Origin: Desulfocapsa sulfexigens DSM 10523
GTDB taxonomy: Bacteria; Desulfobacterota; Desulfobulbia; Desulfobulbales; Desulfocapsaceae
NCBI RefSeq assembly: GCF_000341395.1
Contig: NC_020304.1
Location: 1,740,001 to 1,772,000 of the forward strand
DNA length: 32,000 nt
Reading direction: 5' to 3'
Shown here: piece by piece, positions 6,347 to 29,429 of the stretch
How positions within the stretch are numbered: the first letter of the stretch is position 1
Layout of the letters: every line of letters begins with the position of its first letter
Made by a program: the position numbers and the translations under genes
The notes under the pieces: generated by a model
What the model was told of the DNA's origin: nothing
Databases searched by the model: none
The model's input: only the letters and a program-made list of their open reading frames with translations

Positions 6347-6542
6347 ATTTGTTCTCCTTATGGATGGTTGTGAGGTATCTTAACGCACCTTCAGAGTTAG
6401 CAGGTAAAGTCAAAATAATCACTTGGAAACTCTTTAATCTGCATGCAATGGCAAGTGCTGAAGATCTCTGTTTGTGGTAAAGAATTATATGGCTGGCTTG
6501 ATCGGGTCACAAGCAGATGGACTGTAATGGTACTTATATGAT

Positions 6543-6719
6543 CCTGATTACCACTAATCCTCAGCCTACCCGCATGAGGAGGAGTTGTTTCGTGTCGATT
6601 GTATGGGCATATCGGCCTGGACGGCCGCAGCAGAGCCCCAAGGGATGGGTTTATGGCGTCCCATATAATCGATACGGAACAGCTCCGGGTTGCAAAGCTG
6701 AGTTTTGATGGTAATCAGG
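6543..6719. mobile_element. MITE-like non-coding palindromic element (177 bp) with 11-bp terminal inverted repeats and 8-bp flanking direct repeats
   Basis: The TIRs are CCTGATTACCA (6543-6553) and TGGTAATCAGG (6709-6719). The flanks are TATATGAT (6535-6542) and TATGTGAT (6720-6727), 7 of 8 identical. The internal arms are complementary, including a 27-bp stem (6581-6607 with 6660-6686). There is no transposase-like ORF. Confidence 0.6.
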
Positions 6720-6764
6720 TATGTGATTGTACCCAAAAAACAATATACATATTGGTATGTCGCA

Positions 6765-7475: not shown

Positions 7476-7745
7476 TTACTCTGGCTGGATATAATCGGCC
7501 AGAGCGTTGATGGTGGTGACACGGCGGCGAAATTCCTTGCTGTCCACAAGTCGTGTTCCAAACTGATTCTGCAGCCCCATGGAGATCTGCAGGGCGTCCA
7601 GTGAATCCAGGCCGAGTCCACTGGCGTCGGAAAAAATCATAACATCATCATTCAATTCATCCGGTGTTATGTCCTCAATATCACACTCTGTGAATATCAT
7701 GGTTTTCAGGCGTAGTTTTAATGTATTGTCAACTGACCCTTTCAT
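7476..7745 (-). CDS. Acyl carrier protein (phosphopantetheine-binding), last gene of the Dar-like cassette
   Basis: 89 aa with the GLGLDSLDALQI motif (DSL serine attachment site). Its ATG overlaps the permease stop (ATGA at 7742-7745). Confidence 0.8.
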   Translation of the reverse strand: MKGSVDNTLKLRLKTMIFTECDIEDITPDELNDDVMIFSDASGLGLDSLDALQISMGLQNQFGTRLVDSKEFRRRVTTINALADYIQPE

Positions 7746-8932
7746 AATCCATTTTTAGTTCTGTGGCCAAATATCAGCCATGCAGTGAGAAGCAGGATTA
7801 TTCCGAAACCTGCAAGAGCCAGTGACTCAATGAGCACTGCACCTGTACCAGAATTACGCAGAAAGATATCGAGAAATCCTTCGAGCCCCCATGACATGGG
7901 CGAGATGTTACTCAGGGTCTGCATGCCCGGCGGCATAAAGAATTTAGGAACCATGACCCCGCCGATGGCACCAAATAAGATATTAATAAGCCCGCCGATG
8001 GTTGTTGCCTGCTCCACACTATTTACTGAAACTGCGATCAGGATTGATGTGCCTATGGCAGCCAGGCTGAGCCCAGCGGAAACCATGAACAAACCAGGCA
8101 AGGAGTTTCCAAGGGTGAGGGGAGCAGCACCAAGGAGCGGCACAATAAACATTCCAACTGCTATCATCAGCCACGCCTGAAGCTGATTGATAATCATGTA
8201 TGGTACAATTTTCCCGGTAAAAAGAAGTGGGATAGAGACGTTCATGGACTGCATCCGCATCAGGGTATTCTGTTTGCGTTCGTTGATAAAGATGGTGGAC
8301 ATGGGGATAATGATAAAAAACATCCCGAAGACTATCCATGACGGTACGCTCTGCTGGGTGGATGTGGGGTGCTGATCTGGGCGCAGGCCATTGAAGTGAA
8401 CCTCCAGTTCGTTCTTGTGAAGCCTCACTGCTTCTGACCTTGCTGTAAGCCCTGGTAGTAATGGCTCAAGTTCCTGCAGCATTTTCTGTACCTGCAATTG
8501 TATGATAACTGCCCTCAATTCTCCTTTAAAGAGTGCCAGCATATCTTGTTTGACGTCACTTGCAACGTCGAGTTGTAAGATTCTGTCACTCTTTTTCTGG
8601 GTAAACTGAGCAGAATAGCCTCTGGGGATAGTGAGAGCGAAATGGAGGCCGCTGTTTAATGCCTGCTCCAGTTGTTCCTGACTCGATATCTTCCCTTCGT
8701 ATTCCTGAAGTACGGTGTTCTCCTTAAGAAAGGTCGCAATTTTCAGACTGATAGATGTCTGATCCTTATCGATCACGGTGTAACGTATAAAAGCCCTGTC
8801 ACTATTGAAGGTGTCCTTCAGCGCCATGGACATGATCAGGATAAAAATAGAGGGCATGACAAAGAGTGCAGCAAGGGCGTGCTTGTCGCGCAGGATCAGA
8901 ATAAATTCTTTTTTGAGCATTGCCCTAAGCAT
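7742..8932 (-). CDS. ABC-2 type transporter permease
   Basis: 396 aa. One N-terminal TM, an extracytoplasmic loop of about 150 aa, then five C-terminal TM helices, which is the YhhJ/YbhS-like ABC-2 architecture. It overlaps the ATPase gene by 8 nt. Confidence 0.8.
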   Translation of the reverse strand: MLRAMLKKEFILILRDKHALAALFVMPSIFILIMSMALKDTFNSDRAFIRYTVIDKDQTSISLKIATFLKENTVLQEYEGKISSQEQLEQALNSGLHFALTIPRGYSAQFTQKKSDRILQLDVASDVKQDMLALFKGELRAVIIQLQVQKMLQELEPLLPGLTARSEAVRLHKNELEVHFNGLRPDQHPTSTQQSVPSWIVFGMFFIIIPMSTIFINERKQNTLMRMQSMNVSIPLLFTGKIVPYMIINQLQAWLMIAVGMFIVPLLGAAPLTLGNSLPGLFMVSAGLSLAAIGTSILIAVSVNSVEQATTIGGLINILFGAIGGVMVPKFFMPPGMQTLSNISPMSWGLEGFLDIFLRNSGTGAVLIESLALAGFGIILLLTAWLIFGHRTKNGL

Positions 8933-9662
8933 TCAATTTTTCCGGACTGGTCAGATGAATAAACAGAGATTCAAGATTCATTGCCGGATCATTATTTTCC
9001 TGAAGCAGAGCCTGCAACGATCCCTGGCGAATGATTTCTCCATGATTGATGATGGCGGCTTCGTCACAGATTTTTTCGATTTCATCCATGTAATGGGAAG
9101 TGTAGATAACGGTTTTATGGTCTTCCTTGAAATTGCGGATGGTTTCGAGGATGTCGATTCGTGACTCAGGGTCAATTCCGATGGTAGGCTCGTCGAAATA
9201 AAGAATCTCAGGGTCGTTCAACAGGCCGATGGCAATATTCAGACGTCTTTTTTGCCCACCGGAGAGGGTGCCGGCCTTTTGCTCAAGGAACGTATCGAGA
9301 TGATTGACGGATATTGCATATTCGAGATTGTTCTGGAGGGATGCACCGACAATATTCTGGATACCTGCGAAAAAGTGGAGATTTTCAATAACGGTAAGAT
9401 GAGCATACAGGGCAAGGGATTGGGGAATAAGAGTACAGCGTTTACGGATCTGTTTGAGATTGTCGCCCAGGGGGAGGCCAAATATTTTAATCTCACCCTC
9501 CTGGAAACCACTGAGCCCGTTCAGGATGGAAATCAATGTTGTTTTCCCGGCCCCGTTAGGCCCCAGTAGGCCGAAGATAACACCTTTGCCTATTTCCATG
9601 CTGAGCTCTTTTAAGGCTGGCTTACCATGATAGCATTTTGTGAGACTGTTGATGTGTATCAT
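8925..9662 (-). CDS. ABC transporter ATP-binding protein
   Basis: Walker A GLLGPNGAGKTT, signature LSGGQKRRLNIAIGL, Walker B ILYFDEPTIGIDP. I preferred the internal ATG 9662 (MIHINSLTKCY...) by homology to typical N-termini. The track start 9716 would overlap the upstream gene by 50 nt. Confidence 0.85.
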   Translation of the reverse strand: MIHINSLTKCYHGKPALKELSMEIGKGVIFGLLGPNGAGKTTLISILNGLSGFQEGEIKIFGLPLGDNLKQIRKRCTLIPQSLALYAHLTVIENLHFFAGIQNIVGASLQNNLEYAISVNHLDTFLEQKAGTLSGGQKRRLNIAIGLLNDPEILYFDEPTIGIDPESRIDILETIRNFKEDHKTVIYTSHYMDEIEKICDEAAIINHGEIIRQGSLQALLQENNDPAMNLESLFIHLTSPEKLNA

Positions 9663-9666
9663 TCCT

Positions 9667-10674
9667 TCAAGCCAGATTTCTATCCAGAAGTTCTTGGTAT
9701 ACTTCGGCTTCTGCATCAGCCAGAGAGTTTACTTTCTCCCCGATAGCAGCAAAGTCGACTGGTTTGTCTTTTTTCTTGCGTATGGCGGTAACTGCCAGCA
9801 GGGCAAACTCGCGCCACTGGTCGCCTACAGCGGTCATCATCCGTGATGCTTTCTGCAAATCCTTATTGTCGAGGAGAGTAGCTGCTTCCTGAAGAAATGA
9901 CGCATAGATAAAACGAAAACCGGCACCACCGGTTCCAATCTCTTCCTGCATTCGCACGATATGGCCGAGAAAGAGCCTGGCCCACCTGGGATCTTTTTGG
10001 TCGAGTCTTCCTATGCTTTTTGCCAGGGAACGAATACCGCGAATCCCGGCAATGGGAACGGGTGTTTTCAGCATGGCTTTGGCATTCTTATAGATCACCT
10101 TTGGAATAATAACAGGAAAATCAATATGCTTGGGAATATGGTGTGGATAGTAAAGTAATCCCTTTGGGGCCATCATTCCCTTTACAAAACGTGCTTTTTC
10201 AAGATCCTTTGCCTCACAACGTTGGCGTGTCTCAAATACAGGATCGCTGATCAGATATTGCCTGTCTTCCTTTCCGTAAATGATCAGATTATGGGCATTA
10301 AAGTGAAATCGCATTTCCGGGGGAAAGTAGGGAAGCCAGAAGACCGAGCTCTGGGCTCCGATTATTTTTCCCTGAGCAAGGAGTGTGTCGAGCATATCCA
10401 TACCCTTTTGTGGACTCGAGAAGGTGTGCATTTGCATTTTAATACCAAGATTTTGCTGCAATCCCTTTATGATGCCTTTTGGCCGTGTCCGATAGGTGAC
10501 AAGCGGCATGCCGCCCAGTTTAAGAAAGGGGATATAGGCAAACAGTAGAGCACCTGAGAGGCCGAAGGCCATGGCTTCCGAGAGCGGCAGCCCATGATGT
10601 GATATCATGAGTGACATCACGCCACTTTCACAATGGGCAAAATGTTTGTGCTGAAAAGGCACTTGCTTAGTCAT
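9667..10674 (-). CDS. BtrH N-terminal-domain / DUF4872-like protein (papain-fold acyl-ACP transferase or peptidase-like)
   Basis: 335 aa. The N-terminus FQHKHFAHCESGVMSLMISHHGLPLSEAMAFGLSGAL resembles the BtrH_N cysteine motif. Recognition is by eye only. Confidence 0.55.
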   Translation of the reverse strand: MTKQVPFQHKHFAHCESGVMSLMISHHGLPLSEAMAFGLSGALLFAYIPFLKLGGMPLVTYRTRPKGIIKGLQQNLGIKMQMHTFSSPQKGMDMLDTLLAQGKIIGAQSSVFWLPYFPPEMRFHFNAHNLIIYGKEDRQYLISDPVFETRQRCEAKDLEKARFVKGMMAPKGLLYYPHHIPKHIDFPVIIPKVIYKNAKAMLKTPVPIAGIRGIRSLAKSIGRLDQKDPRWARLFLGHIVRMQEEIGTGGAGFRFIYASFLQEAATLLDNKDLQKASRMMTAVGDQWREFALLAVTAIRKKKDKPVDFAAIGEKVNSLADAEAEVYQELLDRNLA

Positions 10675-10678
10675 TGTT

Positions 10679-11083
10679 TTACTTCTGCTCCGGCATTCTG
10701 CAGAGTTCCTCTGCGGTCATTCCGAGAGCGTTTCCGTATCGATCAAGCATTTTTGAGGAAAGTTTCCAGAAAACAGAGGGGTTGAAGTGGCGTTTGATGC
10801 GCCATTTATATATACCGGTTGATTCGGACAATACCTGCAGATCCATACGTCTGTCGTACATATAAAAAAAAAGGGGGGATTTGCTGCCACTGCCTACCTT
10901 TGTATAGGCATCTTTTGCGAGACGTTCAAGTTCCTGTACCGCCTGCATGGTTGCCTCTTCTTCGATCTTCCAGCCACTGGAAGCAATAACATCGTAGTTA
11001 CCGGCGCTGTCTGTTGCGTACATCGCTTTTTTGTTGTTTGCGTAGGTACGGATGTTATCCTGTGGGACTTCGTTCTGTTCCAT
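10679..11083 (-). CDS. Hypothetical protein (134 aa) embedded in the Dar-like cassette
   Basis: The ORF sits 3 nt after the KAS III stop and 4 nt before the BtrH-like start. I recognise no family. It contains an in-frame C6T9 tract on the coding strand. Confidence 0.6.
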   Translation of the reverse strand: MEQNEVPQDNIRTYANNKKAMYATDSAGNYDVIASSGWKIEEEATMQAVQELERLAKDAYTKVGSGSKSPLFFYMYDRRMDLQVLSESTGIYKWRIKRHFNPSVFWKLSSKMLDRYGNALGMTAEELCRMPEQK

Positions 11084-11086
11084 TGC

Positions 11087-12241
11087 CTATACCACGGTGA
11101 AATGCATAAATGCCGTTGAAAATCTGCCGCTTTCCGGGACATAGCAGAGTATACGTTCCCCTTTTTCGAGACGTCCGGAGTTGAAGAGTTCTTCAAGAAT
11201 AATGTATATGGATGCTGATCCGGTGTTTCCCTTTGTGCTCAGGTTGCTGAACCATTTTTCTTGTGGGATATCACAATAAGCATGATGCATTCCTTTATAC
11301 ACCTTGTCACGAAAATAGGCAGAGGAGTAGTGGGGGAGGAACCAGTCAATCTGTTCGGGATCCACTCTGTTTTCTTTCACAAGTTCAAGGAGAGGTCTTG
11401 TCACGGTGTACTCAATGATTTTATCATTAAGCAGTTTGACATCCTGTTTTATGCTGAATGTTGAATGTTCCAGCCATTCCTGGGGGAGATATTCACGCCA
11501 TCCGCGCAGAGAACCATCCTGGAGTTTCTCGGCACCAGCATACATACAGGATTCTAGTTCACCGGCATAGGATTTCTGGTCAATCCAGTCTATGCGTAAG
11601 GATATCCCGTCCCTGGTACTGTTTGGCTTGTTGCTCATCCAGACAGCCCCGGCTCCATCACTCAGCATCCAGCGCAGGAAGTCTTTTTCAAAGGCGAGCT
11701 CGGGGTTCTTTTCCAGATCTTTGCTGCGCACGGCCATTTCTTCAGTGAAGAGGTGGCCGCGCAGGAGGGATGATACATTCTCGGAACCCGTTGCCACAGC
11801 ATTGCTGTTGAGTCCGGAGAGGATAGCCATATATCCATATTTCAGTGACATGGTACCCGCTAGACATATCCCTGCAGTTGCAACAGCTTCACATGGTGGC
11901 AGACCAAGCTCCCCAAGTACCATGAGTGCGTGGTTAGGCATGATCTGATCGGGAAGGGTGGTGCCGCAGGCAAGGAGCTCTATGGTATCCAGATCGCAGC
12001 CCTGTGTGCCAAGCATGCGTACGGCTTCTGCGGTGAGTTGAGCATTGTTGTGACTGGCGAGGCCGGTTTTGGGATCAATGGCATAGTAGCGGGAAATGAT
12101 TTTGTTACTGCGGAGAATCAGGTTTCGTACCCGTGATGGTCGTGTCGCCACCGGCTGAAGTAACGACTCCATGCTATCATTGGAAACCGCTTCATTGGGT
12201 AAAAATGCACTGATGCAATTGATAAAAACGTTTTGTAACAT
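11087..12241 (-). CDS. darB: KAS III-family ketosynthase, DarB-like (3-oxoacyl-ACP synthase III family)
   Basis: 384 aa. Catalytic triad candidates are Cys in ATAGICLAG, His in FLPHYSSAYF and Asn in STKGNTGSASIY. It lies directly downstream of the DarA-like gene. Confidence 0.65.
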   Translation of the reverse strand: MLQNVFINCISAFLPNEAVSNDSMESLLQPVATRPSRVRNLILRSNKIISRYYAIDPKTGLASHNNAQLTAEAVRMLGTQGCDLDTIELLACGTTLPDQIMPNHALMVLGELGLPPCEAVATAGICLAGTMSLKYGYMAILSGLNSNAVATGSENVSSLLRGHLFTEEMAVRSKDLEKNPELAFEKDFLRWMLSDGAGAVWMSNKPNSTRDGISLRIDWIDQKSYAGELESCMYAGAEKLQDGSLRGWREYLPQEWLEHSTFSIKQDVKLLNDKIIEYTVTRPLLELVKENRVDPEQIDWFLPHYSSAYFRDKVYKGMHHAYCDIPQEKWFSNLSTKGNTGSASIYIILEELFNSGRLEKGERILCYVPESGRFSTAFMHFTVV

Positions 12242-12262
12242 GCGTTGTAAACTTAAAAGCCT

Positions 12263-13174
12263 TTATTTTCCTGAAGGTTGTTCATAGTATTTGACAGCCT
12301 TGGCGAGCGACTTTTTCCTGAATGGAGAAAGCAGCTTTCGGACCAGCATGTTCAAAGGTACAATGGTGAGTATCAGAGTCAATAGAAAGATTACATAGAT
12401 CGTGATAACAACATTACGTCCACGTGAATATTGGGGCCCTGCCTTTTTGATCAGTTTGGACCAGATCAAAAAACTGCGGTGGGCTATATGTTCCGTGGCA
12501 ATCAGCTTTCCGTTGACATTAACGGCTCCCATGTTATTCAGCAGTGGGAGACTATCCCGTTCTTCATCATGCTGCAATGCTTTGCAGAGACGATCCCCAA
12601 AACGAGAGGTGGAAGCAATTTCATTTTCGTGTACTCCTGCCCGGGGGAAGAACCAGAAGGCATCTTTCTTTCCGGTGAGCATCCAGCGTGGAGTGGTGAC
12701 AAAGGTGTAGAGCGATTTACCCTGATCTGTGAGCACCACGTTGTCCAGGAGGTGTGCACCAAGGTCCTTGAGCATCGTTTTCATTTTTTCCTGGGCCATC
12801 AGCCACATATCACGGCAGGCAATCACAGTTACTACTGGCGTATTGTTAAATACTTTTTTGGCCTGATCACTTTGCAGAAAACCGGTGACAGGAATGGAAG
12901 GAGAGAGAAACCAGGAGGTGTAGCCGAGCACGATGAGATCGTATTGTTCTTCTATTTGCAAGGTCTTCACCGGGCAGCCATCGAGGTAGACAGCTTCCGG
13001 GAACACATTGAAAAACCTGTAAAATGGCCAGGGGTAAGGATAGGGAGTTAGCGGCTCAATTTTTTGATAATCACATTGGATACCGTCACACTGTTTAAGA
13101 GGTGCGACAATCTGATCCATAACGGATTGCAGTTGTCCGCTTTGGGAGTAATAGAGAACCAGTACTTTTTTCAT
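12263..13174 (-). CDS. darA: Flavodoxin-like protein resembling the dialkylresorcinol condensing/aromatising enzyme DarA
   Basis: 303 aa. The N-terminus MKKVLVLYYSQSGQLQSV is flavodoxin-like. YDLIVLGYTSWFLSPSIPVTGFL and NTPVVTVIACRDMWLMAQEKMK match my recollection of DarA proteins. There is a C-terminal TM helix (VVITIYVIFLLTLILTIVPL). Confidence 0.6.
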   Translation of the reverse strand: MKKVLVLYYSQSGQLQSVMDQIVAPLKQCDGIQCDYQKIEPLTPYPYPWPFYRFFNVFPEAVYLDGCPVKTLQIEEQYDLIVLGYTSWFLSPSIPVTGFLQSDQAKKVFNNTPVVTVIACRDMWLMAQEKMKTMLKDLGAHLLDNVVLTDQGKSLYTFVTTPRWMLTGKKDAFWFFPRAGVHENEIASTSRFGDRLCKALQHDEERDSLPLLNNMGAVNVNGKLIATEHIAHRSFLIWSKLIKKAGPQYSRGRNVVITIYVIFLLTLILTIVPLNMLVRKLLSPFRKKSLAKAVKYYEQPSGK

Positions 13175-13265: not shown

Positions 13266-13371
13266 GCCTGGACGGCCACAGCAGAGCCCCCAGGGATGGG
13301 TTTATGGCGTCCCATATAATCGACACGGAACAACTCCGGGTTGCAAAGCTGAGTTTCGATGGTAATCAGGT
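13266..13371. repeat. Truncated second copy (centre plus right arm) of the 6543-6719 palindromic element
   Basis: 106 nt align without gaps to 6615-6720 (offset 6651) with 5 mismatches. It has the same orientation and includes the right TIR TGGTAATCAGG (13360-13370). The left arm is absent. It lies in the intergenic gap between the M16 peptidase stop and the darA-like start. Confidence 0.85.
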
Positions 13372-13373
13372 TC

Positions 13374-16292
13374 TTATAACTCGCCCAACTGATCAAAAAG
13401 ATCACTGTCAGCTTCAATTTTTGCACGGTTTCCAATGATCATCCGGTTACTGTTTGCCTGCATGGTGGCAAATGCATCGGCATAAGAACGCATGTCCTCT
13501 ACGGAGGTTGAAATGATCTCTTCAATTCGCTGCTGTTTGAACTCTGCGGTAATACCGTTCAGGTAATCATTGCGGGCAGAGATACCTTTTGCAGCAGAAG
13601 CCCGATGGGGAGTAAAGTTGCCGTAGGTTCCTATAATTAACTGATGCAGGACTTCTTTGGGCAGTTCAAGATTTTTGACCACTTCAGCCATGGCCTGATA
13701 ACAGGTATAGGTTTTTCGTACCTGCGGGTCACGGTAACTTATAACTGCAAAGTTACCACTGATAGGACTGAACTGGATAAAACAGCCATAGGCCCCACCC
13801 ATCTGCCGTACTGTATTCCAGAGATAATCACGGGAGAGGTAGGTTTTCAGAACCTCAAAATACCCCTTGTACCCTTCGCCTTCGGGCAGGAGTTTACCAC
13901 CCTGTACTGCGTAGACAACTTCTGCGGAGGTGATTAGCGCCTCATGTCTGGGAAGCTTTGGTATAATAAATTCCTGTCTGGGCGGTGTCATATCAGGGAG
14001 CGCTGATATCAGACCTCTGCAGTGCTTTTGAAAGCTGGTGACTTCGCTTTCATTGGCGGTAATAGAAATGGTCAGATTGTTTCGGTTGAAAAGCGTATCT
14101 GCCATCTCCCGAAGACCTGCTAGAAAGGCTTCTTCAAGTTTTGGGTAGTTATTGGCAAGTTCTTTGGTGCTGCGATAATTAGTGACCCCCGAGACCATTT
14201 CATTACAGGCTCCGGCTTTACTTAACTGGGCAAAGGCCAGCGATGCTGGGAGATTATACCCTTCGCTCTGGGCTTCGTGTTCTGTCCAGGCAAAATCACG
14301 AATAACAATTTCCTGAATATGAACGCGATCCTGCAGGGAGAGATCGGAGAAGACCTCACTCAAGAGTTGCAGGGCTCGTTCCTGGTACTCGGGCAGGCAT
14401 TTCATCTGGAACCAGAGGATGGGACGAAAGTCACCATGGCCACCTTTTTTGACATGGCAGTGGAAGTTATGCGAGAATCCTCCAGTACAGATCCCGACTT
14501 CCCTGGCAAAATGCATATAGTCCATTTTGGAGGTACCGATTTCGGTAACAATACTTCCGAAAAGATCCAGCCAGGGGAGATATTTTTGCGGGAGGCAGGA
14601 GACGTCAAAACCGATATCAATATAAGAAATATGATCGGTATTCAGTTCGCTGACCAGAAATTCGTGTCCGTCAATATCTGTGGCACGTACCTGATGAAAA
14701 TCGGGGTTCCGGTCAAGGTCCTCCAGTCCCAGTTGAGGAAGAAGGGCAAGAGTCTCCACACTGTTTGCCCGTTGCTGATCCTCCATCAGCTCCAGAGTTC
14801 TGGCAATAAGTTTTTCCTGGCTATGGGAGTCAAGACTTTTACCGTATGCTTCAAGACGTGCCGCCTCACTTGCCTGATCCCTGGTCTGTTTTTCTGGATC
14901 CGGCTTGAGGGTGATGACAACTGTAGCCGGGTTGTCGAGAAGGTATTTCTTGATCAGTTCCTCGAAGTAGTTCTCGTTTAATGCCCTGTTACGGATGGTT
15001 GCAAACAACTCGTTAATCTGCAGGGAATCGTAGGGGTCTGTGCCGTACTTGAATGCAGGCATTGCTTTGCCGATAAGATCCAGACCGCGTTGTGCCTTGC
15101 AGCCCTCTTCTCTCACCCCAAATTCATACTTGTTGAGTTCTGAAAGGATGAGGTCTGTAGCCAGGCCCTCCGCTGCCATCTGTGATAGAGTTTTTTTGTA
15201 GAGATTGAGGAACTCATCTCGTTTTTCAGAATCACTTCCCACAAGATAGGTTACCATCATGGTTTTGAAACTTGAGGTGGAGATATAAAAACCACCAAAG
15301 TCCTTACACAATCCACTGGTAATAATAGTATTCTTTAGAGGTGAGGCATCTGAGTTGTAGAGGATGTTGGAGATGATCTGGAAGGCTGCATTCTCTTCAC
15401 GATTCAGCACCGTTGAGACTCTGCTTGCAACAGCAAGAAAGGTTTTTTGATCTGTATTCTTTGAGTCGATGCTGTAACGGTCTTCAATGTAGGTTATTTT
15501 TTGTATCTCGTCTCCGGAAAGTACTTTTGCACGTTTCCCTTTTTCGGGGAATTCGGAAAGAAAATTATCCTGAAGATAGGACAGTTCATCACCAAGATCT
15601 GCATCGCCATAAATAAAAAATGTGGCGTTTGATGGATGGTAATGGGTTTTGTGAAAGGCACAAAATTCTTCATAGGAGAGTTCTGGAATGTTTTGCGGAT
15701 CCCCACCCGATTCATGGGCGTAGGTGGAATTTGGCATCAGGCCGCCAAATATATGATGAAAGATCAACCGTATGGGGTCGGAAAAGGCTCCTTTCATCTC
15801 GTTGTAGACAACACCCTGATACTGCAGGGGGGAATCTTTCCCCTCCTGGTGGTAATGCCAGCCTTCCTGTTCAAATGTGGATCTGGCCAGCAGTGGATTT
15901 AACACCACATCCATATACACATCCATAATGTTGAAATATTCCTTCAGGTTCCTGGTGGCAAAGGGATAGTAGGTGATATCCGATCCGGTCATGGCATTTA
16001 AAAATGTCATGAGTCCGCCCTTGTTGATTTCGCCAAAGACATCCTTAACCGGGTATTTTTTTGATCCCATAAGTACCGAATGCTCAAGAATATGAGCAAC
16101 GCCCTTGGAGTCGGTGGGAATGGTGTTGAATGAAACTGAAAAGGTTTTGTTATTGTCGCCATTCTTGATGGCCAGTAATGGACAGCCGAGAACATCGTGC
16201 TCAAAAAGATATACTTCTGCTTTTATTTCGTCGAGCTGTTGCACTTGTTTCAGGGTAAATCCGGAATAGGTAGAGCCTGGAGAATAGGTCAT
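13374..16292 (-). CDS. M16C-family zinc metallopeptidase (PreP / presequence-protease-like insulinase)
   Basis: 972 aa. It has the inverted zinc motif HILEHSV (HxxEH) near the N-terminus followed by ...NAMTGSDITYYPF...YNEMKG. The length and four-domain size are typical of PreP-like M16C enzymes. Confidence 0.85.
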   Translation of the reverse strand: MTYSPGSTYSGFTLKQVQQLDEIKAEVYLFEHDVLGCPLLAIKNGDNNKTFSVSFNTIPTDSKGVAHILEHSVLMGSKKYPVKDVFGEINKGGLMTFLNAMTGSDITYYPFATRNLKEYFNIMDVYMDVVLNPLLARSTFEQEGWHYHQEGKDSPLQYQGVVYNEMKGAFSDPIRLIFHHIFGGLMPNSTYAHESGGDPQNIPELSYEEFCAFHKTHYHPSNATFFIYGDADLGDELSYLQDNFLSEFPEKGKRAKVLSGDEIQKITYIEDRYSIDSKNTDQKTFLAVASRVSTVLNREENAAFQIISNILYNSDASPLKNTIITSGLCKDFGGFYISTSSFKTMMVTYLVGSDSEKRDEFLNLYKKTLSQMAAEGLATDLILSELNKYEFGVREEGCKAQRGLDLIGKAMPAFKYGTDPYDSLQINELFATIRNRALNENYFEELIKKYLLDNPATVVITLKPDPEKQTRDQASEAARLEAYGKSLDSHSQEKLIARTLELMEDQQRANSVETLALLPQLGLEDLDRNPDFHQVRATDIDGHEFLVSELNTDHISYIDIGFDVSCLPQKYLPWLDLFGSIVTEIGTSKMDYMHFAREVGICTGGFSHNFHCHVKKGGHGDFRPILWFQMKCLPEYQERALQLLSEVFSDLSLQDRVHIQEIVIRDFAWTEHEAQSEGYNLPASLAFAQLSKAGACNEMVSGVTNYRSTKELANNYPKLEEAFLAGLREMADTLFNRNNLTISITANESEVTSFQKHCRGLISALPDMTPPRQEFIIPKLPRHEALITSAEVVYAVQGGKLLPEGEGYKGYFEVLKTYLSRDYLWNTVRQMGGAYGCFIQFSPISGNFAVISYRDPQVRKTYTCYQAMAEVVKNLELPKEVLHQLIIGTYGNFTPHRASAAKGISARNDYLNGITAEFKQQRIEEIISTSVEDMRSYADAFATMQANSNRMIIGNRAKIEADSDLFDQLGEL

Positions 16293-27046: not shown

Positions 27047-27393
27047 GATATTTTTAAACCGTTTGCAATTGTTTTGTCCGGAGCGGCCAGAACCACGGAA
27101 CCATTTTCCTGAGAGAATCCGGTAACCAGACATTCTGACATAAAGGGGCCGATCTGTTTGGGAGGAAAGTTGAGAACAGCGATGATCTGTTTTCCAATGA
27201 GCTCCTCCCTGCTGTAGAGATCTGTGATCTGGGCACTTGATTTTCGAGTGCCAATTTCGCTGCCAAAATCAATAAGAAGTTTCCAGGCGGGCTGCCGGGC
27301 TTCGGGAAAGTCATTGACTTCAACAATGGTACCCGTGCGCAGCTCAATTCGCTCAAAATCCTGCCAGTTGATTGTTTCCATGGTTCGTTTCAT
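27043..27393 (-). CDS. CsaA/YgjH-type tRNA-binding-domain protein
   Basis: About 116 aa. [53 protein letters not shown]...[21 protein letters not shown] is the OB-fold tRNA-binding (Trbp111/CsaA) pattern. ATGA overlaps with sucD (27390-27393) and with the B12 subunit (27043-27046). Confidence 0.75.
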
Positions 27394-28271
27394 ATATGCT
27401 CTGTAAAGACTTCCCGGCACAGCCTGCCAAGGTTCCCCAGACTTTCACAGACATGAATGTTGTTGTCGCGCATGGCGGTAAGTTTCGCCTCTGCTGTTCC
27501 TTTGCCTCCACTGACAATGGCTCCGGCATGGCCCATGCGTCTTCCTGGAGGGGCTGTCAGTCCCGCAATGAAGCCAACCACGGGTTTGTTCATGTTGGCG
27601 GCTATCCAGGCAGCAGCGTCTTCTTCTGCGCTGCCGCCAATCTCACCAACCATAACCACTGCCAGTGTTTCAGGGTCATTCTGGAAGGCCGAGAGGCAGT
27701 CGATAAAGTCTGTGCCGTTGATGGGGTCACCGCCAATACCGAGACAGGTAGTCTGACCAAGTCCCTGTTGTGTGAGCTGATGGACAACTTCATAGGTAAG
27801 AGTGCCCGACCGTGAAACCACTCCAACCGGGCCACCCGGGGTGTGGATGGGGCCTGGCATAATGCCGATCTTGCACTCTCCTGGGGTGATGATCCCCGGG
27901 CAGTTGGGGCCGATAAGACGGGTCTTTTTACCCGCCATGCCATTTTTGACCCGGAGCATGTCCATAACCGGAATTCCTTCAGTGATACACACCACCAATT
28001 CAAGTTCTGCATCCACTGCTTCAAGGATGGCTTCTGCAGCAAAGGGAGGAGGGACTACGATCATGGAGGCATTGGCACCGGTGTCACGCCTCGCTGCGGC
28101 CACACTGTTAAAAACGGGAATTCCCTTCAGGTTCTGCCCACCTTTGCCGGGAGTTACTCCAGCAACGATGTTTGTTCCATACAGGCGGCACTGTTCGGTG
28201 TGGAACTGCCCCTCTTTTCCAGTGATTCCCTGGACCAGAACTCTGGTATTTTTATCTACAAATATAGCCAT
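27390..28271 (-). CDS. sucD: Succinyl-CoA synthetase alpha subunit
   Basis: [25 protein letters not shown]...[20 protein letters not shown]...SRSGTLTYE...MGHAGAIV is canonical SucD, including the phosphohistidine loop. Confidence 0.95.
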
Positions 28272-28274
28272 TGT

Positions 28275-29429
28275 TTATTCCTTGAATTGAGATTCTAACG
28301 GACTGGTGAGTTGCAGGGGATCTCCTGAGATGATTTCCACGGATGGGGGGACGACCTCTGCCTCGTCCAGTGGCAGGATGGTGGCAGGTTTTGCCTCTCT
28401 ATTCTTCAGATATTCAAGACTATTTTTACAGAAGGCGGTAATGACTCCATCAACTCCCACTGTGAAATAGAAAAATTCCAGTTCTTCATTAAAATTCTGG
28501 ACGAAGGGGACTCTTTTTGCAGTATCTTTTTCAATTGGAAAGGTGAAGATCATGGTTCCAAGCTGCTGGGCATTTTTTACAAAATCATCAAGTAACAGTT
28601 TCCCCTCAGAATCTGCCAGCATATGTTTGGGCAGGCCTATGGCGGCCACGGAACTGGTGAGTGAACGGAGGCCAGATTTAGAAAACATCCAGTCGTAGTT
28701 ATAACTGTTCCACTCTCCCCACTCCTCGGTCATATTTTCCTGTCCTTCATTTGATTCAATGAGTTGCACCAGCTTGACATCCATCCCCATTTCAGGGAGA
28801 AGCTCTTTTTTTATGCGACTGAGCTCGGCGGCATCGTAGGACATTAGAAGAAGAGTGTCGTCAGGGCTACTGTAGCCATATTGCTGAAGGATACGAAGTA
28901 CAGGGCTGCTGAGATCCCTGCCTTCTTTGCGGTGCAGCCAGGTCTGCTTGAGTTCAATGGCAATGCGAGTGTTTTTTTCCAGGCTTTTGTTCAGTGCCTC
29001 GACGAGGGACAATACCTCTTCAAGGGTTGGGATGGTGAGACGTAGCTGCAGGTCTTCGGGAAAACGTCCCGCAGGATCGCGCAGAGTCAGTTGACGAATT
29101 TCTTCAAGAGTAAGGTCGAGGGCGTAAAACTGTCCATCGTCCCGCTTACGATCAGGAAAAATTTCACCAACATTGGTATTATGTTGTATTCTGGGAGAGC
29201 CAGCAACAATAACCTCATTGTCTGCGCTGAGGACTGTGTCAATCTTGACAATATCCGTGTCCATCACTATAGCCATAGCTATTGCCGGCAGGCTGTGTTC
29301 CATGAGGTAGCCGGAAGCTCCACCCTGTGCGATCACAAGCTTGGCTGTCGCGGGTGATGACGGAAAAACAAGGCCAGTGAGGATAAGGAAAAATCCAGAT
29401 CGTTTTAAGAGAAGTAATAGATATCGCAT
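28275..29429 (-). CDS. Secreted GlpQ-like glycerophosphodiester phosphodiesterase homologue lacking the catalytic His/Arg/His residues (predicted pseudoenzyme)
   Basis: Signal peptide MRYLLLLLKRSGFFLILTGLVFPSSPATA. There is clear similarity to E. coli GlpQ as I recall it: FPDRKRDDGQFYALDLTLEEIRQL, YDAAELSRIKKELLPEMGMDVKLVQLI, SYNYDWMF. However, the HRG motif reads QGG, E-x-D reads K-I-D and HD reads AG. Confidence 0.75.
   Translation of the reverse strand: MRYLLLLLKRSGFFLILTGLVFPSSPATAKLVIAQGGASGYLMEHSLPAIAMAIVMDTDIVKIDTVLSADNEVIVAGSPRIQHNTNVGEIFPDRKRDDGQFYALDLTLEEIRQLTLRDPAGRFPEDLQLRLTIPTLEEVLSLVEALNKSLEKNTRIAIELKQTWLHRKEGRDLSSPVLRILQQYGYSSPDDTLLLMSYDAAELSRIKKELLPEMGMDVKLVQLIESNEGQENMTEEWGEWNSYNYDWMFSKSGLRSLTSSVAAIGLPKHMLADSEGKLLLDDFVKNAQQLGTMIFTFPIEKDTAKRVPFVQNFNEELEFFYFTVGVDGVITAFCKNSLEYLKNREAKPATILPLDEAEVVPPSVEIISGDPLQLTSPLESQFKE

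Follow-up and report, generated by a model that had tools for sequence, protein, structure and literature searches.

A canonical dialkylresorcinol gene module in the strict anaerobe Desulfocapsa sulfexigens

Seven dar genes on the minus strand

We analyzed a stretch of 32,000 nucleotides (nt) from the genome of Desulfocapsa sulfexigens DSM 10523 (NC_020304.1, positions 1,740,001 to 1,772,000), called the window in the following, with the focus on a group of seven open reading frames (ORFs) that are tightly packed on the minus strand at 13174-7476. The group is a copy of the already published and NCBI-curated dar module and thus a new example, not a new system. This module makes dialkylresorcinol (DAR) lipids, which are the lipid half of flexirubin-type pigments. 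In the order of transcription the genes are:

12263-13174, minus strand: darA, 303 amino acids (aa)
11087-12241, minus strand: darB, 384 aa
10679-11083, minus strand: darG (darD in Azoarcus naming), 134 aa
9667-10674, minus strand: darH (darE in Azoarcus naming), 335 aa
8925-9662, minus strand: ATP-binding cassette (ABC) ATPase, darI (darF in Azoarcus naming), 245 aa
7742-8932, minus strand: ABC-2 permease, darJ (darI in Azoarcus naming), 396 aa
7476-7745, minus strand: darC, 89 aa

Consecutive ORFs are separated by gaps of 21, 3, 4 and 4 nt, followed by overlaps of 8 and 4 nt, and the ORF list of the window returned all seven genes and their junctions exactly where an earlier annotation made without database searches (the sequence-only reading) had placed them. 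They are genuine genes and chance ORFs are excluded, because six of the seven match Pfam or NCBIfam families strongly and DarA has thousands of full-length homologues. The spacing of the genes makes a single operon plausible. Terminator-like and promoter-like sites within the cassette occur at or below the number expected from shuffled sequence, and the GC content is uniform with that of the flanks. For the ABC ATPase, an alternative upstream ATG at 9716 would yield a protein of 263 aa with a 50-nt overlap with the preceding gene; conservation in orthologous loci starts at the 9662 start.

A comparison of DarB with family models assigns this protein to the StlD/DarB family of beta-ketoacyl-acyl carrier protein synthases III (KAS III) and not to FabH. 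It scores 579 bits with the StlD/DarB model NF005293 (cut-off 450) versus 57 bits with the fabH model TIGR00747 (cut-off 292), and matches the crystallised StlD of Photorhabdus (PDB 5gk0) over residues 2-384 with E=6e-134, FabH structures following at about 1e-11. The catalytic residues C126, H304 and N339 align with those of StlD, which bears out the Cys, His and Asn motifs named in the sequence-only reading, and together with E154 they are at least 95% conserved in 70 orthologues. A head-to-head condensation to a carboxy-cyclohexanedione can be assigned to DarB by homology. The protein stays below the narrow NCBIfam exception model 'resorcinol_DarB' (487.5 bits, cut-off 550). A Pseudomonas DarB of a classical darABC-type locus fails in the same way (503.9 bits), and therefore this model is narrower than the functional class.

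DarA has no significant match in Pfam or NCBIfam, and only marginal flavodoxin/WrbA sequence matches were obtained. As the Pseudomonas DarA from a classical locus of the type darA-darB-acyl carrier protein (ACP)-AraC is likewise missed by both libraries, this result reflects the lack of a DarA model and is not a sign of a different family. An exhaustive search returned 805 representative clusters of the DarA family, 251 of them with E <=1e-30, and nearly all of the best 150 of the 805 are full-length with about 300 aa; close homologues carry the NCBI name 'dialkylresorcinol condensing enzyme'. The identity to DarA proteins of Pseudomonas dar loci, including the classical locus mentioned above, amounts to 45-48% across residues 1-303. 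The protein consists of an N-terminal WrbA/flavodoxin-like domain and a single C-terminal transmembrane (TM) helix at residues 255-273. Its AlphaFold model (mean predicted local confidence, pLDDT, 80.7; predicted template modelling score, pTM, 0.82) has a flavodoxin-like core, for which Foldseek lists the flavin mononucleotide (FMN) quinone reductases WrbA and PnpB as best matches (E about 4e-8) and flavodoxins down to 3e-6. A profile of the family matches the FMN flavoprotein 3edo/2mwm (E=2.3e-6), and the N-terminal loop YYSQSGQ is of the FMN type. By homology DarA belongs to the aromatase family, and we assume that it carries out a decarboxylating oxidation. Furthermore, the WrbA-like fold, the FMN-type loop and the membrane anchor suggest a flavin dehydrogenase that would be able to pass electrons to the membrane quinone and would not need oxygen.

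The third gene had been taken for an orphan in the sequence-only reading. This is not the case, because its product scores 174.8 bits with the family model NF053536 (DarG_fam, cut-off 70), and DarG is a small conserved accessory protein of the dar module. It is 100% identical to UWK_01565 of D. sulfexigens DSM 10523 and stays below the flexirubin-specific equivalog NF053545 (130.2 bits, cut-off 170). The structural model (pLDDT 77) shows a disordered N-terminus, followed by helices in the C-terminal half. The helical domain at about residues 70-127 (pLDDT >90) is weakly similar to five-helix helix-turn-helix (HTH) domains of the XRE type (E 0.01-0.2) and also, again weakly, to the HTH-like structural domains of HppE, HEPD and MPnS. 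DNA binding or a role as structural partner of DarB or DarH were considered as possible functions.

DarH combines the Pfam domains BtrH_N (1.8e-47) and DUF4872 (2.4e-57) and scores 495.5 bits with NF053550 (DarH_acyl, 'BtrH-related acyltransferase DarH', cut-off 300). Across 63 orthologues, conservation reaches 95% or more for H14-C15-E16, H124, N126, H128-N129 and D144. Such an invariant Cys with His residues would be expected in a thioester-dependent, papain-like acyltransferase of the Cys/His type related to BtrH, which we predict DarH to be. A sequence search of the PDB did not return a solved relative of this protein, and the searchable literature on DUF4872 and on an acyltransferase for the DAR ester bond did not yield experimental data.

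The remaining three genes encode an ABC-2 transporter and a carrier protein. The ATPase matches Pfam ABC_tran (1.2e-28), and its best NCBIfam match is the DrrA subfamily, under the cut-off. The permease matches ABC2_membrane_3 (4.5e-33) and ABC2_membrane (2.2e-16), and its hydropathy profile has a first TM segment, a loop of about 160 aa and then five TM segments. DarC matches the Pfam family PP-binding (5.8e-06) with a DSL phosphopantetheine site at S48; in 44 orthologues the conservation of D47-S48-D50 is 95% or higher, and darC directly follows the permease gene in collinear loci. Taken together, Pfam and NCBIfam uphold the BtrH_N/DUF4872 protein, the ABC-2 transporter and the ACP of the sequence-only reading, its flavodoxin-like 303-aa protein with a C-terminal TM helix is correct by Foldseek, family profile and TM prediction, and its proposal of a Dar-type pathway is in line with the DarB scores, the StlD match and the homology of DarA to the classical Pseudomonas protein. 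DarA turned out to be more than a generic flavodoxin, and the KAS III does not belong to the FabH clade, the two outcomes which that reading had named as speaking against such a pathway.

The module in other genomes and its surroundings in the window

To see whether the gene order recurs in other genomes, a point raised by the sequence-only reading, we scanned genomes with a nine-sequence DarA alignment as seed; a divergent set of 24 sequences was too variable for this purpose. Among the 600 matches listed, at least 582 DarA relatives were confirmed. 80 loci were examined by tblastn and ORF clustering, 61 of which were informative, i.e. had enough downstream sequence. The order does recur, in many phyla, and the dar module is present in dozens of genera. 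The informative loci comprise:

DarA-DarB-DarG-DarH core: 55 of 61 loci
All seven genes present: 43 of 61 loci
All seven genes collinear as in the window: 15 of 61 loci
All seven genes plus a 381-aa ketosynthase (KS) and a 281-aa partner: 32 of 61 loci (32 of the 43 complete ones)
DarA-DarB only: 5 of 61 loci

Most copies of the module retain the accessory genes darG, darH and the ABC-2 pair, and darA adjoins darB in 70 of 78 surveyed loci. The DarA-DarB-only group consists of L078 (darA-darB-ACP-AraC) and four more loci, two of these in Pseudomonas; it contains Pseudomonas loci of the classical free-DAR type. Collinear loci were found in Desulfocapsa-like metagenome-assembled genomes (MAGs), Sulfurimonadaceae, Aliivibrio/Vibrio and Sulfurospirillum. 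In many Pseudomonas, Arcobacter and other loci, a unit of ATPase, permease, ACP, KS and partner is convergent with the four-gene core.

The 381-aa KS carries PF00109 and PF02801. Its partner of about 281 aa belongs to no Pfam or NCBIfam family and is always located beside this KS (41 loci; L009, L012, L014, L015, L017, L019-L022, L025, L029, L031 and others, e.g. L069:12479-13324). By its position in the module the 281-aa protein corresponds to Azoarcus darK, and it may be a KS partner or chain-length factor. A tblastn search with representatives of both proteins gave no match in the window. The window and the Desulfocapsa-like loci L008, L010, L011, L013 and L023 lack the KS pair beside the ACP, L011 having a lone KS homologue four genes downstream on the opposite strand. 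This absence is the only structural peculiarity of the copy in the window.

For closest-relative identities, the window was compared with L009, L014-L017, L019-L022 and L025-L027. Among the matches listed, the closest ones outside the Desulfobulbales come from Campylobacterota (Sulfurimonadaceae, Sulfurospirillum) with a DarA 56-63% identical to that of the window, and the DarA of Vibrionaceae is 57-60% identical; the DarA of a 'Deltaproteobacteria' MAG (L070) is more distant (48%). This pattern of identities suggests that the collinear module was exchanged horizontally among marine sediment and vent bacteria. One locus labelled Sulfurimonadaceae (L009) has a DarA 74% identical to that of the window, which may be a binning error.

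The cassette is surrounded by genes for pst phosphate transport, a cupin, a uracil-DNA glycosylase, a PreP-type M16 peptidase, a GGDEF protein and a methylmalonyl-CoA pathway block. The window shares 96-98% DNA identity and its synteny with a MAG contig, and an Rfam search of the whole window returned no family. Two copies of a palindromic repeat bracket the uracil-DNA glycosylase gene and the entire dar cassette, with no transposase nearby:

6534-6727: palindromic repeat, first copy
13266-13379: palindromic repeat, second copy

The element of about 190 nt folds as one long hairpin with a minimum free energy of -94.9 kcal/mol (shuffled sequences: -59.8 +/- 4.7 kcal/mol, z=-7.5); the partial copy, located 6.65 kb away, comprises 106 nt with 95% identity. 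It looks like a miniature inverted-repeat transposable element (MITE) or a repetitive extragenic palindromic (REP)-like repeat. A mobile island delimited by these repeats is ruled out by the ordinary GC content, the absence of transposase and integrase genes and the synteny kept in the related MAG. At the other end of the window, a gene of the glycerophosphodiester phosphodiesterase family is inserted at an unusual point, between two putative succinyl-CoA ligase genes:

27390-28271: gene resembling the succinyl-CoA ligase alpha subunit
28275-29429: glycerophosphodiester phosphodiesterase-family gene, 384 aa
29433-30584: gene resembling the succinyl-CoA ligase beta subunit

This trio lies inside the methylmalonyl-CoA block, which contains a mutase, MeaB, a B12-binding subunit, a carboxyltransferase and an oxaloacetate decarboxylase (OAD) beta subunit.

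Proposed pathway and alternative explanations

A carboxy-cyclohexanedione arises when DarB-type enzymes condense an alpha,beta-unsaturated acyl thioester with a beta-ketoacyl thioester; DarA-type enzymes like BrtC and StlC then aromatise it with decarboxylation (review PMC6836626). We consider it probable that the cassette is a stand-alone, trimmed version of the canonical DAR module, in which DarB and DarA build the DAR, DarH acylates it and the ABC-2 transporter exports the product. In detail, DarB would join a beta-ketoacyl and a 2-enoyl thioester by Michael addition and Claisen condensation, the substrates being drawn from fatty-acid metabolism and/or carried on DarC. The membrane-anchored, WrbA-like flavoprotein DarA would then convert the carboxy-cyclohexanedione to the 2,5-dialkylresorcinol by decarboxylation and oxidation, with electrons that, as fold and anchor suggest, could flow via FMN to a membrane quinone without a need for oxygen. 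DarH presumably transfers an acyl group from a DarC thioester to a hydroxyl group of the resorcinol, giving an ester of the flexirubin/arcuflavin type, and the hydrophobic product would be moved by the ABC-2 transporter out of the inner membrane towards the envelope. The acyl donor could be a plain fatty acyl chain or a polyene made elsewhere in the genome.

We favour DarH as resorcinol acyltransferase on the basis of three observations: loci of the free-DAR type lack DarH, Azoarcus has it and contains DAR only in esterified form although its dar biosynthesis proteins make free DAR in E. coli, and BtrH-type enzymes, as Llewellyn et al. reportedly described in 2007, take acyl groups from ACP thioesters. 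According to the sequence-only reading, the BtrH-like enzyme might instead pass on a Dar product that is bound to the ACP. This is unlikely, as the product of DarB is a free carboxy-cyclohexanedione (PMC6836626), and for the same reason the resorcinol is more likely the acceptor than an ACP-bound donor. The darABC loci, which produce free DAR in P. aurantiaca, do so without DarG, DarH and the ABC genes, so that these genes are unneeded for the core reactions and are candidates for tailoring and export.

Several points weigh against this pathway. Co-transcription of the seven genes is deduced from their spacing, FMN binding and the quinone acceptor of DarA from its predicted fold, and the product in D. 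sulfexigens from the genes. The searchable literature contains no experimentally determined function of DarG, DarH or the ABC pair, and in C. pinensis a different enzyme, the 'ligase-like' FlxW, has been proposed for the ester bond. In addition, the KS pair that follows the ACP in 32 of the 43 complete loci is absent here, which leaves the substrate supply of DarC unexplained.

It is possible, but clearly less probable, that the cassette represents one half of a split aryl-polyene-DAR pathway, with the polyene genes located elsewhere in the genome and DarH or another enzyme forming the ester. This explanation overlaps with the stand-alone module, as the acyl donor is the sole difference between them. 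It gains weight from the fact that polyene-DAR esters are the products of the two organisms with this gene order that have been studied by experiment, that the polyene loci of Azoarcus are linked neither to each other nor to the dar genes, and that extra KS and Ketoacyl-synt_2 genes lie beside the module in several surveyed loci (L014, L015, L017, L025, L055, L056 and L064). However, the window ORFs with a length of 150 aa or more include none of the polyene genes looked for (KS/chain-length factor pair, dehydratase, LolA-like protein, MMPL exporter, ammonia-lyase, XanB2), the window also lacks the KS pair of the DarJ/DarK type (Azoarcus naming), and DarG stays under the flexirubin-specific equivalog. 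We regard it as unlikely that the product is a free DAR or cyclohexanedione (CHD) which the ABC-2 pump secretes and which serves as a signal or as an antimicrobial, like the compounds of Photorhabdus asymbiotica or Pseudomonas chlororaphis. DarH would in this case be a thioesterase for ACP loading or editing. It is known that darABC systems can end with free DARs and CHDs, and an exporter beside the biosynthetic genes would fit secretion, but the loci of the free-DAR type in our survey (L058, L066 and L078) are devoid of DarG, DarH and ABC genes, neither a LuxR-solo (PauR-like) nor an AraC (DarS/DarR-like) regulator is present in the 32-kb window, and in Azoarcus BH72, which has the same module, DAR is esterified to a polyene and free DAR is undetectable (Schoner et al., 2014, PMC3949708). 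In the same study the Azoarcus dar biosynthesis proteins yielded free DAR in E. coli.

An assembly of adjacent housekeeping genes, namely FabH, a generic flavodoxin or quinone reductase and an unrelated ABC transporter, has next to no probability. The marginal library matches of DarA might be read in this direction, but the same libraries miss the DarA of a classical Pseudomonas locus and the four-gene core is kept in order across many phyla. This explanation is refuted by the StlD/DarB scores, the match to the StlD structure and the locus survey.

The sequence-only reading had concluded from the surrounding genes that the host is an anaerobe, and D. sulfexigens is indeed a strict one, so that its question of how DarA would drive the aromatisation there is justified. 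A far-reaching extension, which we put forward as a speculation with rather low odds, is that in strictly anaerobic, sulfur-disproportionating Desulfocapsaceae, and maybe also in the Campylobacterota with the closest homologues, a stand-alone dar module without polyene genes and without the DarJ-DarK pair makes an acylated DAR envelope lipid without oxygen. DarA would be a membrane-anchored, quinone-linked flavin dehydrogenase and the product an unrecognised class of resorcinolic lipids in bacteria of anoxic sediments. Searchable surveys of biosynthetic gene clusters from anoxic basins mention resorcinol clusters only in passing.

Comparison with known dar clusters

The closest published parallels are the dar genes of Azoarcus BH72 (azo0293-azo0283; Schoner et al., 2014, PMC3949708, Table 1) and of Flavobacterium johnsoniae. 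In Azoarcus, darA and darB are followed by darD (conserved hypothetical), darE (BtrH-like), darF (ABC ATPase), a toxin-antitoxin pair, darI (permease), darC (ACP), darJ (KS) and darK. The order of the seven functions is the same as in the window; the differences are the toxin-antitoxin pair between ATPase and permease, the darJ/darK genes behind the ACP, the polyene (arc) loci elsewhere in the Azoarcus genome and the strictly anaerobic host of the window copy. The flexirubin genes of F. johnsoniae comprise darA, darB, G (hypothetical), H (BtrH N-terminal domain), I (ABC ATPase), J (permease), C (ACP) and D (KS) according to a paper of 2026 (PMC12968099), and this dar section is part of a 37-kb pigment cluster. 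Again, the same seven functions occur in the same lettered order, which the names DarG and DarH in NCBIfam evidently follow. In contrast to the flexirubin system, the DarG of the window stays under the flexirubin equivalog and its DarB under 'resorcinol_DarB'.

The classical darABC loci (with darSR) of Pseudomonas chlororaphis/aurantiaca and StlC/StlD of Photorhabdus have the DarA/DarB(/ACP) core in common with the window, but their products are free resorcinols or stilbene, and DarG, DarH and the ABC-2 transporter are missing from them. BtrH of butirosin biosynthesis shares with DarH the N-terminal BtrH_N domain and, by analogy, acyl transfer from an ACP thioester. Unlike BtrH, DarH has no aminoglycoside context, carries DUF4872 and has an NCBIfam equivalog of its own, and a phenol, instead of an amine, is presumably its acceptor.

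In the sequence-only reading, the BtrH-like enzyme, the supposed orphan and the exporter had been described as an unusual extension of a Dar cassette. As the same order has been published for Azoarcus and F. johnsoniae and NCBIfam holds models for DarG and DarH, this extension is the canonical module itself, and the cassette reveals no new kind of pathway. With D. sulfexigens, a strict anaerobe joins the organisms that carry this widespread module for lipids and pigments. As this copy stands alone, without the KS pair and without adjacent polyene genes, it is a clean minimal system, in which the roles of DarG and DarH and an oxygen-free aromatisation by DarA can be addressed directly.

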